Source: a virus (Duplodnaviria > Caudoviricetes). From it: a DNA stretch of 64,000 nt. Where the stretch lies: IMG/VR virus record IMGVR_UViG_3300033463_000039, positions 53,994 through 117,993 of that record. One strand, given 5' to 3'. Positions 28,075 through 52,244 of this stretch are shown one piece after another. Both the position numbers and the translations under genes were made by a program. How positions within the stretch are numbered: the stretch's first letter is position 1; every line of letters begins with the position of its first letter. The notes below the pieces were generated by a model. It ran no database searches. It was not told the DNA's origin and saw only the letters and a program-made list of their open reading frames with translations.

Positions 28075-29143
28075 TTAATCTATTATAGTTAAAAGCATTT
28101 TTAATCTATCTTCTTTATTCTTTTTATTGCGACATTCCTTACAAATTGAATAAAAATGGTCTTTAGAAGTTTTATTTTTTGAAAAAAATAAATTGTTTGC
28201 GAGTTTATATTCTCCGCATCGCGAACATTTCTTCCATTGACCGACCGCCGCATAAGTATAATATCATTCTAAATAACGCTTTTGTTCATTTTCCGCAATT
28301 ATCTTTGGTATTTTATTACGCCATAATGCACTAATGTATTCAACAGAGTGCTTAATATGAAACTCACGCTCTAAATTTTCTTGGATTTCCGCATTACTTT
28401 TTCCATCTATTTTATAAATCAATAGTTGATAATACATTGGATATTTATCTTTTAATGCGGCATCTACCGCGTTATCTAGATCTATCATTGCGCCTCACAT
28501 ATCAGTATTAAATTTTGCATAAGTTTCTTCTTTTAGCGCTGAGTAATTACACAAGAGAGCACTAATATGAGAAGGATTAAAAAAAGAGATAATTCCATCG
28601 CTATGCGGCAACCCTTGCTCATCAATGTGTATGTGCTCGCTTAAATCCGCATAAGCAAGGTTTTGCGCAAGTCCGCGGTGTTTTATGAAAATCATCTTTT
28701 AATAGATATTGTTCTTGATACATTTCTATTAATTGTTTTTTTAATTTATATTTCTTTTTGCCTGTTGCGGCCTCCGCACTTTTTTGTACTATTGATATGG
28801 CCTCGCGCAAATTTTTAAGATCTGGGTTACGCTCTACATCACGCGGCGTTATTTTTATTTTAGGTGTTAATAAAATATTTTTATCATTTTCTATTATTAG
28901 GTTTGAAACTCCATCTTCGCCATTTTCAAACTGAGAAACAAGTCCTTGATAAGAAGTTTCGCGCTTTTGAATAGTTAGCATGCGATTATCTGTCAATATT
29001 TCTTTTGTTTTTTCGGCTGATATAATATAATTAGATAATATTTCTATGTAGCTTTCTGATAAATTTTCTATTGGAGTTTCTTTTACTATTTGGTCAACTA
29101 AATTTTTGCGACCTTCCGCATCTAAACTATAATCTAGCTTCAA
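28075..29143 (-). CDS. Hypothetical protein with HTH-like segment and C-terminal Zn finger; code 4 plus +1 frameshift at CGG 28675-28673
   Basis: 28622-29143 joins 28495-28695 at CCG-C-GGA; TGA readthrough at 28497 and 28266 then gives ...WKKCSRCGEYK...SICKECRN. Confidence 0.75.
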
Positions 29144-45692: not shown

Positions 45693-46523
45693 TATTTTCT
45701 CCCTTTAAATTTTCTTTTTCATACATTTTTTGAAAATTCTTTCTTGCAATTATACATTCATTTCCTGTTACTCTTCCAGTATAAAAATCATAATTCAAAG
45801 AATAACAATCTCTATTATATTTACAGCCTCCGCAATATTGACTACCATAATACATTTTAATTCTCCTCTAATAATTCTTGATAAGCATCTATTTTTATAT
45901 AAATATCTGGATTATCTTCATCTGCTATTTCTTTTAATTCTTCTATTTTTTCTCTTATTTTGGCTTTGCTAATATAACTATTTAATATATTTTTATGTAC
46001 CCAATTTTCTAATTTGTGATTATTTTTATTTTCATTTCTTTTCTCCTTTTCCTTTACTTATATATAAATATTATAATATATTTTATTTAAAAAATCAATT
46101 ATAAATCATGCGGCAGCTGGTCCTCCGATCTCTAACCGAAGCCCGCACATAAAAACAAGGAGAAGCATGATACTTCTCCTTTAGGAAAGGGATTGAATTT
46201 TGTAAATAAACATTTCTATTTATTTACATATACATTATAATAAAAAATTTTTTGAAATTCAACTTTTTATTATAAGTTTTTTCTATATAAGTTAAGATTG
46301 TTTTTTAAGAGAGAGGATTTTAAAATAAATAAAACCCTCTTTTTCCATTTATATTTTGGAAGAAATGAAAATATGAAAATTGATATTATTTATAAAGCAT
46401 TTCAATTTCGCTTTTGTAATACATTTAGTTTTAATCCAGACTCACCGCGTGGAGGTATGTATTTATTAAGTCCTTATTTATTTTCTAATATTATTATATA
46501 ATAAAATTTTATATTTTTCAAAA

Positions 46524-46623
46524 TGGGGGAGGTGATCAGAATTGAACTGATGTACAAAATATATTCTCATTAAAGAGGTATGTTTTTATAAAACAATATA
46601 TCTTGGCGAAACCAAGCACCCCC
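46524..46623 (-). ncRNA. Miniature tmRNA-like RNA (tRNA-like domain only)
   Basis: GGGGGTG/CACCTCC acceptor with G3-U70, unpaired CTTGGTTTCGC D region, 11-bp helix CAAGATATATT/AATATATTTTG, T arm ATCAG-TTCAATT-CTGAT, encoded CCA. Confidence 0.7.
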
Positions 46624-46723
46624 ATTTTATATAAACTAGAAGGTAGACTTTTACAAACAAATGTATGGTGCTACCTCAACCATTAAGATATTATTTTAAC
46701 TAATTATAATATCTTTCATTCCT

Positions 46724-47725
46724 TTAAATTGACAAATAATTCATTGGATTAACTAATTTTCCGCCAATTAAAACTTCAAAATGCAAATGATAACCCGTTG
46801 AACGACCTGTCGAACCTACATATCCTATAACTTGACCTTGAGAAACTTTTTGACCAACAGAAACAGATATAGAATTACAATGTCCATATCTAGTAATCAT
46901 GCCATCTCCATGGTCGATAATAATAAATTTACCATATCCACCATATCAACCTGCATGAATAACTGTTCCAGTTTTTCAAGCATAAATAGAAGTATTACAT
47001 GGTGCTATGATGTCTACTCCAGTATGCATCCTGCCATGTCTCATACCATACGAAGAACCAATATAGGTATAATTTGCAAGCGGGATCCCCTTAGAAGAGT
47101 AGCTTCTCACAATAGAAGAACGTCTTGATGTTGTGTTGTATTTCTGCATAGCTGATTTGGCTGCACGAGCGGCCGCCTCTTCTTTCTCTTTCTCTGTTTT
47201 TACTTGTGCTATTTTATTATCAAGCACTGCTGTAGATGTAATTGTGGAATAACTTACATTACATTCAGTTATATCGTACTCTTGTGCTTTTATATCATTT
47301 AATTTTTTAATAAAATTTTGACAATCTTCTTTAGATTTAAAATAATAATTATTTTTATCATTTTTAATATTTAATTTTGCACTAGATACAATAACATCTA
47401 AAAGGTTTGAGATATTTCCTTCTTTAGAACTTTTTTCAATATTTTGTTTAATTTTTACAGGCTCTATTGAAGTAATATTATAACCATTTTGTTGTAATTC
47501 TTTTGTAAAATTTGTTACCATTTTTTGCACTTTATAATCTGCTTGTAATGTTATTGTTCCAATAGGAGTAATAACATTATTTTTTTCAATACTAGCATAA
47601 ACCATGCTAGTAGAAGTAATTAATGCATATAAAATAATAACAATACAAATTAAATTATATATAGCTTGTTTTTTACTTGCTGTATATCCCCTTATTAGGG
47701 AGAGGGGTATCTCTTTGATTTTCAT
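46724..47725 (-). CDS. M23 family peptidoglycan peptidase with N-terminal TM helix (code 4)
   Basis: HTGVD motif; readthrough of TGA 46978 gives AG-W-YGGYG...TRYGH...[15 protein letters not shown]...VNP. Confidence 0.9.
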
Positions 47726-47804
47726 AATAAAATCCTCCGTTAAATTAAGATATTTAAAGGAAACTTTATTATAGGATATTGTGTTTTTGAGGGCGGGCGC
47801 CCTC

Positions 47805-47880
47805 TGGTTCGCTCTCCATGACTCGAACATAGACTCTTTGGGGCCAAGGCCCAACGTGTTACCAATTACACCAAGAGCGA
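47805..47880 (-). tRNA. tRNA-Gln(TTG), atypical C33
   Basis: U1-A72, stem TTGGG/CCCAA, loop CCTTGGC, encoded CCA. Confidence 0.75.
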
Positions 47881-48116
47881 ATATATAATGGCATTTATTA
47901 AATAATATTATGACTTAGGTCAAGTAGATTTTCTCCGTGAATGTACACTTCCGTTACCAGAAATGCGCTTTCGCTTTAAAATTCAGATATGCGGTTGCCC
48001 TACATATGACTTGATTACCACTTAGTTCATACCTTAAATTTAATAAATATCGGCCTAGAAGTTTTCCTTACAATAATTTGTTATTAACTAGGATACCGTG
48101 CCATTAAAAATAATAA

Positions 48117-48192
48117 TGGAGCCACTTGTCTGATTCGAACAGACGACCCATACTTTACAAGAGTATTGCTCTACCAACTGAGCTAAAGTGGC
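48117..48192 (-). tRNA. tRNA-Thr(TGT)
   Basis: Canonical cloverleaf, loop CTTGTAA, CCA. Confidence 0.95.
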
Positions 48193-48333
48193 ATAAATAT
48201 AAAGGCTCCTGACCAGAAAATATATAACTAGTATCAAGTATATAGCGAGTTATGTTCTCCCATTTTTCTATATTCTATATTTTCTACTTTTTAAAATCAG
48301 GATTAGTTATTTTATACTCTATAACTATTGAGT

Positions 48334-48408
48334 TGGTGATCCCAACGGGAATTGAACCCATGTCTCCACCGTGAAAGGGTGATGTCTTAACCGCTTGACC
48401 ATGGGACC
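48334..48408 (-). tRNA. tRNA-Glu(TTC)
   Basis: Canonical cloverleaf, loop CTTTCAC, CCA. Confidence 0.95.
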
Positions 48409-48418
48409 AAAAATTATA

Positions 48419-48511
48419 TGGCGCGGAAAGTAAGATTCGAACTTACGGACCAAGAAATCTTAGTCGAGGGTTTAGCAAACCCTTGGTTTAAGCCAACTCA
48501 CCCATTTCCGC
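48419..48511 (-). tRNA. tRNA-Ser(GCT)
   Basis: Loop TTGCTAA, long variable arm, G73, CCA. Confidence 0.9.
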
Positions 48512-48512
48512 A

Positions 48513-49040
48513 TTAATCCCACAAATCCCAAAAGTATTTAGTAAATAATTCAAATGCTTTTTCTTTACATTCATTTCTATATATATAAATTTCTTTATCT
48601 TTATTAAACATATCAGTTTTTATTTGTTGATATTCTCTATATCGATCTGGTTCACAAATTCTGAATTTATTCCAATTTCTTTCGTTTGCTTTATTCCATT
48701 CTTCACAATCTTTTATTTTTATATCCTCTGTTGAAAGTCCACCAAATTTTAATATATATGGAGGAAGTTCAAAATTCATATATTTTTTAGTAAGTTCTTC
48801 AACTTCATTTTGTCTTGAACAAGTATCTTCATTAGCCTCTCTAAAATAATATATCATTTGATTTAGTATTTTAGTCCATTCTCTATCTTCTAAATTGCCA
48901 GGATATCCATGTCTTTTCTCATTAAATTCAGTTAACATATTTGGAACAACAGTAAGAAACCAATAACTTATATCATATAAATCACTATCACAATAACCTT
49001 TTTCTTGTCTTTGTTTTTTCATTTTTCTTTTAAAAAACAT
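48513..49040 (-). CDS. Hypothetical phage protein
   Basis: Intact ORF ending AFELFTKYFWDLWD. Confidence 0.7.
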   Translation of the reverse strand: MFFKRKMKKQRQEKGYCDSDLYDISYWFLTVVPNMLTEFNEKRHGYPGNLEDREWTKILNQMIYYFREANEDTCSRQNEVEELTKKYMNFELPPYILKFGGLSTEDIKIKDCEEWNKANERNWNKFRICEPDRYREYQQIKTDMFNKDKEIYIYRNECKEKAFELFTKYFWDLWD

Positions 49041-49053
49041 AATTATCCCTCCT

Positions 49054-49440
49054 CTAAGTCGGCATCTGTGCCTTCTTAACTATTTCTACTTTTGCAATAA
49101 AATTACCTAATTTAAAAGTAATAAATTTTCCTCCATTTCTTGTATAAGGAATATTTAATTCTTTTAATTTATTACATATTTTAACTATTATTTCTTCTTT
49201 AGTATCATCTCTAAAAGCTTTTTTATTATCATTTTCAAGAAAAGCTTTTGCTTCTTTTAAACGAACATCATATATTTTATTATTAACTAATACTAAATTA
49301 AAAATACCATCTCCAGTAAGAGAATATTTTCTTTTATATTGATTATAATTATCATTAAAAATAGATTTTAAAAATACTGTACCAAAATTATAATCATACT
49401 CCCAAAAGTAATCAACTTTTTTATTAAAAAACTTTTCCAT
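49054..49440 (-). CDS. Hypothetical protein
   Basis: Intact ORF with promoter and RBS. Confidence 0.65.
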   Translation of the reverse strand: MEKFFNKKVDYFWEYDYNFGTVFLKSIFNDNYNQYKRKYSLTGDGIFNLVLVNNKIYDVRLKEAKAFLENDNKKAFRDDTKEEIIVKICNKLKELNIPYTRNGGKFITFKLGNFIAKVEIVKKAQMPT

Positions 49441-49577
49441 TTCTTTTTATCCCTTTCTTTATTATAAATATATTATATTATATTTTTTTATAAAAATCAA
49501 TATGAATAATGCGGAAGCCCATAAAAAGACCTCCGCAATAAAAAGTTGCTTATACTAAAATTAAAAAATCATATGTT

Positions 49578-49979
49578 TTATTTGATTTCAATATTCTTCT
49601 TTGCTATTTTCTTTTGTTCAATCTTAGGAATAGTTATATAAAGCAAACCATTCTTAGCTTGTGCTTGAATATTTTCTAGGTCTAAGGCCTTATCATCAAC
49701 AGCGAGTCTTGATGACATTGAGTACTCTTTACCTGTTATTTCATCTTTTGTTTTACCTTCTATAACTAAATAAGATGTATTACTCTCATGTTCTCTTGAA
49801 ATTTTTAAATCTTCTTTATTAATTCCTAAAATATTATGAGTAATTATTATTTTATCATTTTTATGATATGCAGAATAGGGTTTCATATCTTTCTCATCTC
49901 TATTGAAACGATAAAATTTCCTATCCCAGTCAAATCAATCTTCATCCCAAAATAATTTCATTAATCCATCATTTAACAT
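49578..49979 (-). CDS. Small heat-shock protein, Hsp20/alpha-crystallin (code 4)
   Basis: GINKEDLKI...IQAQAKNGLLYITIPK; true start ATG 49979 with GGAGG RBS, through one TGA (FWDED-W-FDW). Confidence 0.85.
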
Positions 49980-50020
49980 ACTAAAACCTCCTATTAAAAA
50001 ATCATTTTAGTATAAGCAAA

Positions 50021-50097
50021 TGGTGGAGCTAAGGAGAGTCGAACTCCTGACCCCCTGCTTGCAAGGCAGATGCTCTAGCCAACTGAGCTACAGCCCC
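50021..50097 (-). tRNA. tRNA-Ala(TGC)
   Basis: Canonical, G3-U70, loop CTTGCAA, CCA. Confidence 0.95.
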
Positions 50098-50333
50098 ATA
50101 TATTTCCAAACAGTATTACTTTTATTTAAAAATTGTTTCATCTTTTTCCATGATTTTAAAGTCATACGATAAAGACCTAATTTTTCAAGATAAATACCTC
50201 TGTCTTTTTTGTTAGAAGAAACATGCTGTAATTCATTTTCAATGTTTATATCAAATTCATCAAAACCTCTAGAATTAACTGGTAAAAATTCTTCTTCTTC
50301 TTTATCATATTTTGCACATACTTCTATAATCAT
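50088..50333 (-). CDS. Hypothetical protein (last codons overlap tRNA-Ala 5' end)
   Basis: ORF with GGAGG RBS. Confidence 0.55.
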   Translation of the reverse strand: MIIEVCAKYDKEEEEFLPVNSRGFDEFDINIENELQHVSSNKKDRGIYLEKLGLYRMTLKSWKKMKQFLNKSNTVWKYMGL

Positions 50334-50396
50334 TTATTACCCTCCTATATTAAAAGCGGGAAGGGAGAAATTTTGTTAATCTCCGCTGCCCGCACT

Positions 50397-51239
50397 TTAG
50401 TTCTTTGATAATAAAATATTGGTAATTCTGGAAAGACTTTTTCATACTTTCAAGTTGGATAAATAATCGTATTATTCTGTCATAAAGTGAGATTGATACT
50501 CACAAGATTAGCATAGATTGGAGTTGTATAGAAGATCCCGCGTCTTCTACAAATATACCTGCGTTCTCTGGATTTCCTGCTGGCGCCTAAGCCACATTGT
50601 TATAGATAATTTTACTTATCTTCAACCATAAATGCAACACTTCTAATATTATATCTGGAAAGATTATAATATAGCTTGCACCCAATCGCTTAGCAACTTT
50701 CTCTAACCTTTTTATATTTTTACCTATTGGCTTTGGTTAAGCAACCTATTGACGATATTTCAATCGTTACCATCATAGTCCTCTATAGCATCTACTATTA
50801 TTAAGGTACTTACTTATGTAAGGAAATACTTCTTCCAGCGTATTTCAATAATATAAAAAATAGTATTTAGTTATCTATATAATAAAATGGTGGCCGCCAT
50901 TTTATTCTGCTAAAAGCACATATAGAGAGAGATTGATTACTCTCAACCATTCAGGGTTCATGTTCCTATATTTAATAATCCACGGTTTTATGCTATCTAC
51001 TCATTGCCCTCTTATTTCAACCGCAGTAGGTAATCCTTAACTTGTTTGCTTCGCTACTAGCACATAGTCTCTACCTACGAGATCAATGATACTTTATACT
51101 TATTATTTAGACAGCCCTCTTCCCTCATACTTCTGTATTATATGACGAATCTTTTGAATTCGTGTAAAGAGGCACTCTTAGAACGAAACCATTCTTTTTT
51201 GAGTTACTAAATTACAATATTTTATTATCAAAGAACTAA
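50397..51239 (-). ncRNA. Candidate large structured ncRNA (~840 nt)
   Basis: No track ORF; ends are a perfect 25-bp inverted repeat (50397-50421 and 51215-51239); lies in the tRNA cluster. Confidence 0.55.
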
Positions 51240-51441
51240 TATAAAATTCCAGATAGTCGAGAGTGCAGTTTCAATCACTCGCATTTCCGCTGAGGTTGCG
51301 TTTTACCTTAATTCTATATGGGAGATGGCCCTCCCTCGTCCTCGCATTGGAACTATATTTTCTTCTCGCCTTTTAATACTTGGCTATCAACTATCTTTGA
51401 TATATTTATTATATGAAAAAATTTTTTAAAAGTCAAAATTT

Positions 51442-52148: not shown

Positions 52149-52244
52149 TGGCACGGGACCAAGGACTTGAACCCTGACCCGAGGTTTTGGAGACCCCGCT
52201 TTACGGTTTTGAAGACCGCTGTGCTACCATTACACTAGTCCCGT
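52149..52244 (-). tRNA. tRNA-Trp(TCA) opal decoder with a second anticodon-like arm (CCA) in the variable region
   Basis: ACGGGAC TA GTGT AATGGTA GCAC A GCGGT-CTTCAAA-ACCGT AAAG CGGGGT-CTCCAAA-ACCTCG GGT CAGGG-TTCAAGT-CCTTG GTCCCGT G CCA. Confidence 0.85.

Follow-up and report, generated by a model that had tools for sequence, protein, structure and literature searches.

The genome of a TGA-recoded phage contains a 100-nt RNA gene that is very probably an internal-deletion derivative of the phage's own tmRNA gene (ssrA), from which some 285 nt have been lost. The deletion took the tag reading frame together with all four pseudoknots (PK1-PK4), and left a complete tRNA-like domain (TLD) closed by helix 2. 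The locus is less exotic than first proposed, being a deletion allele of a gene kept whole in sister phages, and of a kind already known from the mycobacteriophage DS6A. The whole statement, that this deletion-derived TLD-only RNA is also functional, either as a competitor for SmpB or in tag-less rescue, we consider evenly balanced.

The stretch of DNA that was analysed (64,000 nt, hereafter the window) forms the 3' portion of a 118-kb viral contig from IMG/VR, estimated to be 78% complete and with a GC content of 28.5%. The contig is TGA-recoded, many of its long genes having an open frame only with TGA as a sense codon, and its large terminase shares ~44% identity with the terminases of Enterococcus and Geobacillus phages of ~140 kb. 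The RNA gene follows an M23 peptidase gene at a distance of 100 nt, inside a co-oriented cluster of eight tRNA genes. The cluster also includes a 96-nt tRNA with anticodon UCA (52149-52244, minus strand; labelled 'SeC' by ARAGORN) that adjoins a tRNA-Trp(CCA). This tRNA(UCA) is found as well in a TGA-recoded distant relative (L267:786-881) and is therefore conserved in that sub-group.

The gene occupies positions 46524..46623 of the window on the minus strand, as do all the elements described below; the RNA runs from 46623 to 46524, so that RNA position i corresponds to window position 46624 - i. The acceptor stem is formed by GGGGGUG (RNA 1-7, 46617..46623) and CACCUCC (RNA 90-96, 46528..46534), which pair at 7/7 positions and include the G3:U70 alanine determinant (its U70 is RNA position 94). 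It is followed by the D-loop analogue CUUGGUUUCGC (RNA 8-18, 46606..46616), without a D stem, a tmRNA-type GG..UUCG loop that aligns to the tmRNA consensus GGaUUCGAC. The 5' strand of helix 2 (P2a; RNA 19-29, 46595..46605) and its 3' strand (RNA 59-69, 46555..46565) form 11 bp in a constrained fold, C19-U29 with A59-G69, flanked by G17.A71 and C18.U70. Between both strands there is an interior of 29 nt (RNA 30-58, 46566..46594) with two small hairpins of 5 and 3 bp (RNA 30-42 and 47-58), in place of PK1, the tag frame and PK2-4; the same interval measures ~285 nt in close relatives, and no GCN resume codon was found in these 29 nt. The linker UAC (RNA 70-72, 46552..46554) corresponds in the alignment to the GAC with which the GGAC motif of tmRNAs ends. 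The T arm, AUCAG-UUCAAUU-CUGAU (RNA 73-89, 46535..46551), has 5/5 pairs and a consensus T loop. At the 3' end, the encoded CCA is preceded by a discriminator C (46527, RNA C97; discriminator and CCA together 46524..46527), at a place where tmRNAs usually have an A.

The nucleotides known to touch SmpB deserve a separate mention. In E. coli tmRNA, U17, C18, G19 and A334 are the SmpB contacts in ribosome structures, A334 being placed in the pocket of SmpB Trp122 (PMC8363625). The equivalents of the first three, in the D-loop analogue, and that of A334, linker base A71, are all retained in the 100-nt RNA. RNA position 18 is C where A is usual, and C18.U70 replaces the usual sheared A.G pair. We considered A18C together with G70U as signs of decay and have withdrawn this reading: the same C, and the same C.U pair, are present in the full tmRNA of close relatives, so that they are lineage-typical and no decay. 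More generally, UUCGC...UAC in place of UUCGAC...GGAC is typical of the lineage and common to the window's RNA and to the full tmRNA of its relatives.

Directly 3' of the gene there is a strong sigma-70-like promoter (TTGAAA-17-TATAAT, 11/12 matches; 46493..46521, minus strand). It drives the next transcription unit and is outside the RNA; the same stretch also follows the full tmRNA in close relatives.

The first-pass annotation of this locus had described a tmRNA-type 5' end without D stem, the G3-U70 pair, an 11-bp helix 2, a T arm and CCA, with the mRNA and pseudoknot domain swapped for about 30 nt with two hairpins and a C instead of A as discriminator. All of this is in the sequence, with the stems fully paired. 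The search with the Rfam tmRNA model that it had suggested also came out in its favour. RF00023 matches the RNA end to end (model positions 1-374) with 54.3 bits, over a gathering threshold of 47 bits, and an E-value of about 1e-18 to 1e-20. The match covers the elements of the TLD (7-bp acceptor stem with G3:U70, stemless D-loop analogue, T arm, helix 2), while ~280 model positions are represented by 9 unaligned nt, and there is neither an mRNA-like domain (resume codon, tag frame and stop) nor PK1-PK4. A second covariance model (R1), built from 28 TLD-only RNAs on other viral contigs and without the window's RNA, matches it over its full length with 48.6 bits (E 6e-10). The tmRNA-type match of the 100-nt RNA is far beyond chance. 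ARAGORN, the other program proposed, found no tRNA and no tmRNA in the 100 nt. Since there is no tmRNA call, there is no tag frame that ARAGORN can find in the 100-nt RNA.

Regarding its predicted folding, the RNA folds better than its shuffles (z = -2.7), and the minimum free energy (MFE) structure given by ViennaRNA is more stable than the TLD-type fold by 2.2 kcal/mol. The MFE structure favours by this amount a CUUGG/CCAAG hairpin in which the D-loop analogue would be tied up, and this counts against function. The gap is within the range of 97 sister RNAs, for which the median is 0.65 and the maximum 9.3 kcal/mol.

The idea that the gene is a decayed ordinary tRNA finds little room in these data. 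There is no anticodon arm and no D stem, so the RNA does not make a cloverleaf, and both tmRNA-type models fit it end to end. The phage's own tRNA-Ala, the obvious candidate, does match the tmRNA model weakly (32.6 bits), and reaches 27.6 bits with R1, 21 bits below the 100-nt RNA. A tRNA-His-like reading, in which C73 would go with a G-1, was rejected as the base before G1 is U. Also rejected was an attP copy of a host ssrA, since an attP would carry the 3' end only and both the 5' and the 3' ends are present here. A further trivial explanation is that the assembler collapsed a full tmRNA, and a single assembly is behind the short form; the flanks and the retained ends are, against this, ~12% diverged from the full-length alleles and are hence no collapsed copy of them. 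Altogether we consider it highly improbable that the gene is an assembly artefact, a decayed tRNA-Ala or an attP copy.

The origin of the gene is best illustrated by its closest relatives. These were reached through homologues of the neighbour protein P0002 (451 aa), many of them on long contigs, by look-ups in the protein database and in the contigs; a search of IMG/VR for related loci using P0002 gave no match. The decisive comparison is with the P0002 cluster at ≥90% identity, in which seven loci span the site (the set L394-L403). They match the window at 47563-46625 and again at 46562-43618, with 87-97% nucleotide identity, and the spacing between the two matched blocks is 394 nt in the relatives versus 62 in the window; the second block starts inside the 3' strand of helix 2. 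At this same site, ARAGORN (run on four of the seven loci) finds a full tmRNA of 383-386 nt with the tag AKANYILCAA (AKANYILCTA in one). The 100-nt RNA aligns to about the first 25 and the last 50 nt of this full tmRNA. Compared with the relatives, the window also lacks ~47 nt directly upstream of the 5' end, and these contain in the relatives a TATAAT-like stretch (identified by eye), so that the gene's own promoter may be gone.

More distant relatives tell the same story. In six contigs (L262-L268, 48-56% identity) the corresponding tRNA cluster contains a full tmRNA, 374-451 nt long, and the site is syntenic in them, with the M23 peptidase gene on one side and the P0002 homologue on the other. 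One of these (L267), which as said above is TGA-recoded and has the same 96-nt tRNA(UCA), carries the M23 peptidase gene upstream of its full tmRNA. An unannotated full tmRNA (Rfam, 77.9 bits) is found also in Phass-1 (OQ749652.1) at about 92139-92577 on the minus strand (L258:1501-1939). Phass-1 is a published TAG-recoded phage of the human gut, and the word tmRNA is absent from the paper that describes it. Given the full tmRNA in the seven close relatives, in the six distant contigs and in Phass-1, the copy in the window is, to judge from the sequences compared, a private deletion. The first-pass annotation had named precisely such a finding, relatives with the full gene and a private deletion here, as one that would speak against its proposal of a mini-tmRNA, and this is what the seven close relatives with their 383-386 nt genes and AKANYILCAA tag reveal. 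Of that proposal, the description of a TLD without the mRNA and pseudoknot domain stands; as worded, the rest is not supported.

A rival explanation of the short form would be that a recent deletion killed the tmRNA gene and the ends have not yet decayed, leaving at most an RNase P site that ends the peptidase transcript. Several observations point in this direction. A complete gene, canonical tag included, is retained by all seven close relatives that span the site. The short form may thus have arisen recently and be neutral or slightly deleterious; of the eight or more genomes sampled at the locus one alone carries it, and no close DNA relative of it was found in the phage collection, in IMG/VR (searched with the 5' end pattern) or in the JGI metagenome contigs (the five JGI matches are three copies of another TLD-only RNA, of 69 nt, and two weaker matches). 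The A-to-C change at the otherwise invariant discriminator is private to this copy, the upstream 47 nt are gone, and any internal deletion would keep helix 2 automatically, so that the survival of this helix is uninformative about selection. Against a dead remnant, none of the differences disrupts a stem, in spite of a divergence of ~12% between the segment from the M23 peptidase gene to the tmRNA and the full-length alleles, and in two stem pairs both partners have changed. Acceptor pair 5:68 is A-U in the relatives and G-C in the window's RNA, a change that L262 and L265 indicate to be derived in the window's lineage; T-stem pair 2 is G-C in the relatives and U-A in the window's RNA; neither of these compensatory changes can be dated as before or after the deletion. 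Moreover, the private changes A-to-G, U-to-C and A-to-C go against the AT bias expected in a genome of such low GC, and selection maintains the same end state in 97 or more other viral genes (see below). We regard the remnant as a real possibility that falls short of being probable, and the odds that this copy has a function, instead of being a fresh remnant, are for us about even.

TLD-only molecules are not without precedent. In the papers of the tmRNA Website the tmRNA of mycobacteriophage DS6A is described as 'TLD only' (Hudson, Lau & Williams, 2014, PMC4131195; PMC11915505), and in the 2025 tmRNA database paper DS6A is the only phage named for this type. Like it, the window's RNA is a phage tmRNA homologue with little beyond the TLD and without a tag frame, in which the TLD is closed by helix 2 with a short cap in the standard, non-permuted order, and R1 matches both (DS6A 28478-28560 with 63.9 bits). 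The differences are also clear. The match in DS6A is of 83 nt and in a mycobacteriophage, whereas the window's RNA has 100 nt, is AT-rich and has the discriminator C; it belongs to a tRNA cluster whose TGA-recoded phage has its relatives among phages of Bacillota, and its sister genomes keep the full gene. Full-length phage tmRNAs, on the other hand (those of L394-L403, L262-L268 and Phass-1, and also of the Bxz1 group of mycobacteriophages), have the same locus and ancestry as the window's RNA and share the features of the TLD, but they are 374-451 nt long and have the pseudoknots and tag frame that the window's RNA lacks.

Outside phages, tmRNAs without coding sequence are found in jakobid mitochondria (Jacob et al., 2004) and in plastids of Mallomonadaceae, and are described in the database literature as thought to act with SmpB without tagging (PMC11915505). 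These forms are organellar, inherited vertically and served by an imported SmpB encoded in the nucleus; the window's RNA is instead a viral gene and any SmpB would be that of the host. Another kind of non-standard phage tmRNA genes are the two-piece tmRNAs of marine and soil phages (S-CRM01, Tunturi_4, Melnitz), which are circularly permuted and keep the coding piece, while the window's RNA has the standard order and no coding piece. In the BLAST comparisons of other mini RNAs, the matches in Tunturi_4 (Tunturiibacter) and S-CRM01 (Synechococcus) turned out to be such permuted two-piece tmRNAs and were discarded as TLD-only cases.

In order to place the RNA among viral genes at large, we have searched IMG/VR using a degenerate pattern of the TLD, retaining only matches with pairing acceptor and T stems. 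The scan yielded at least 99 distinct sequences of 66-118 nt. A model-based alignment was made of 98 sequences, i.e., 97 from other viral contigs (loci L022-L246) and the window's RNA. In this alignment 96.5% of the cells are paired, a share that drops to ~50% if the partners are slid. The filter did not look at helix 2, in which 7/8 pairs have double-sided changes, and G3:U70 is present in 98/98 RNAs although the filter would equally accept G:C. The discriminator is A in 97/97 of the other TLD-only RNAs and in the full tmRNA of every relative, and C in the window's RNA alone. TLD-only tmRNAs recur in other phages and are evidently under selection there.

The genomic context of these genes is that of ordinary phage genes. 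The flanks of 75 loci (149 ORFs) contain capsid, prohead protease or portal genes and the like, with no enrichment of translation factors among these 149 ORFs, and co-oriented tRNA genes are near 26/99 of the loci, among the matches listed. We have also surveyed 33 of the larger carrier genomes, 18 of them ≥90% complete. In 30/33 the mini form, which occurs twice in one of the 30, is the sole tmRNA-like gene above the Rfam cut-off; G001 has a full and a mini tmRNA, and G012 has two minis. SmpB is encoded in 0/33. The same pattern applied to prokaryote genomes gave at least 120 matches, of which seven passed the stem filter, five of them with G3:U70. The prokaryote cases (L282, L291, L331, L300) include a version of 86 nt common to three Poribacteria MAGs and another of 72 nt, from a Saccharibacteria MAG, with UUCGCC as in the window's RNA.

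Such genes are common in uncultivated phages, with strong covariation and an invariant alanine determinant, and have been little noticed. ARAGORN was silent on 76/84 of the TLD-only RNAs on which it was run, and the surveys of phage tmRNAs in PMC7162821 and PMC9004378 were ARAGORN-based, so they would probably have missed TLD-only genes, which would explain why the class was overlooked. As a tentative generalization, which we hold to be possible and no better than that, there would be a widespread class of phage TLD-only RNAs that hijack the SmpB and AlaRS of the host to block tagging or to rescue without a tag, the window's RNA being a newborn member beside its full-length ancestor. No full tmRNA, SmpB, RF-1 domain protein (including the ArfB type) or AlaRS is encoded in the contig itself, and a phage-encoded partner for the 100-nt RNA was rejected in view of the lack of SmpB, of an RF-1/ArfB-type domain and of AlaRS.

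The RNA would most likely still be cut from the transcript of the tRNA cluster like a tRNA, and would most likely still bind the SmpB of the host, given that all of its stems are preserved, as are the nucleotides known to contact SmpB. A73 is an identity element for alanine. Charging by the AlaRS of the host is less certain for this copy, since the discriminator is C instead of A. At stalled ribosomes the RNA would compete with the full-length tmRNA while being unable to add the degradation tag, with the net outcome that tagging would be inhibited or that rescue would take place without a tag. A published TLD-only molecule is reported to strongly inhibit tmRNA in E. coli, chargeable or not (Mao, 2009, RNA Biol 6:355, as summarized in PMC4131195 and PMC11915505). 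With this example, and with the recurrence and apparent selection of TLD-only genes in other phages, a role of the window's copy as a decoy or in tag-less rescue is plausible by analogy. For the family as a whole, the invariance of G3:U70 and A73 suggests that charging matters, and this argues for entry into the ribosome, as a tag-less rescuer or a charged competitor, which fits better than a passive SmpB sponge; the C73 of the window's copy leans the other way.

A more specific function would be related to the genetic code. The first-pass annotation had suggested that the RNA guards ribosomes that pause at in-frame UGA (or CGG) from the trans-translation of the host. The phage does use TGA heavily within its genes and carries the tRNA(UCA), and where a stop codon is unassigned, tagging blocks the propagation of phages and plasmids and deletion of ssrA restores it (PMC6207430). 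This shield is possible but not favoured, because the recoded relatives retain tag-encoding tmRNAs: full genes are found in the TGA-recoded L267, in the close relatives and in TAG-recoded relatives. The 97 other TLD-only RNA genes span a GC of 0.38 to 0.73, and for them a link to recoding may or may not exist. On balance we deem a shield specific to recoding unlikely. The locus provides a natural pair, a full tmRNA (AKANYILCAA) versus a TLD-only form in a context otherwise 87-97% identical, and this is the comparison required to learn the benefit or cost to a phage of doing without the tag. If TLD-only RNAs are active, they would be a cheap and recurrent route by which phages interfere with bacterial ribosome rescue.

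Some other features of the neighbourhood are worth recording. The region is a mosaic, in which identity to the close relatives is 87-89% towards the tmRNA and ~97% towards P0002. Compared with them (L394:1890-4494), the window lacks at 46012-46040 / 45853-45900 ~2.6 kb of small genes, including a DUF7695 gene, that in the relatives sit between the tmRNA site and a Gp5.9-like gene. Just past the strong promoter that follows the mini-tmRNA, at 46406-46474 (minus strand), there are matches below the cut-off to two HDV-like ribozyme families (drz-agam-1, 17.9 bits, and HDV-F-prausnitzii, 16.8 bits) that share the core ACCUCCACGCGGUGAG; a sequence similar to this stretch is seen in the close relative L394 at about 1440-1480. 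A leader-like element of 61 nt (46355-46415, minus strand) is 87-90% identical to L262:2987-3046 and L264:4074-4133, where it precedes a gene of 179 aa that does not follow it in the window. A ROOL RNA is located a few kb downstream of the tmRNA in three of the distant relatives (L262:3712-4326, L264:4799-5403 and L267:6587-7223; Rfam 152-175 bits), and nothing reached the threshold for it in window 47700-51400, which includes an 840-nt non-coding stretch. Finally, between tRNA-Thr and tRNA-Gln, a region of 205 nt (47892-48096, minus strand) matches the OLE RNA model RF01071 (positions 279-595 of 616) with 106.7 bits, and looks like a truncated OLE-like RNA within the phage tRNA cluster.
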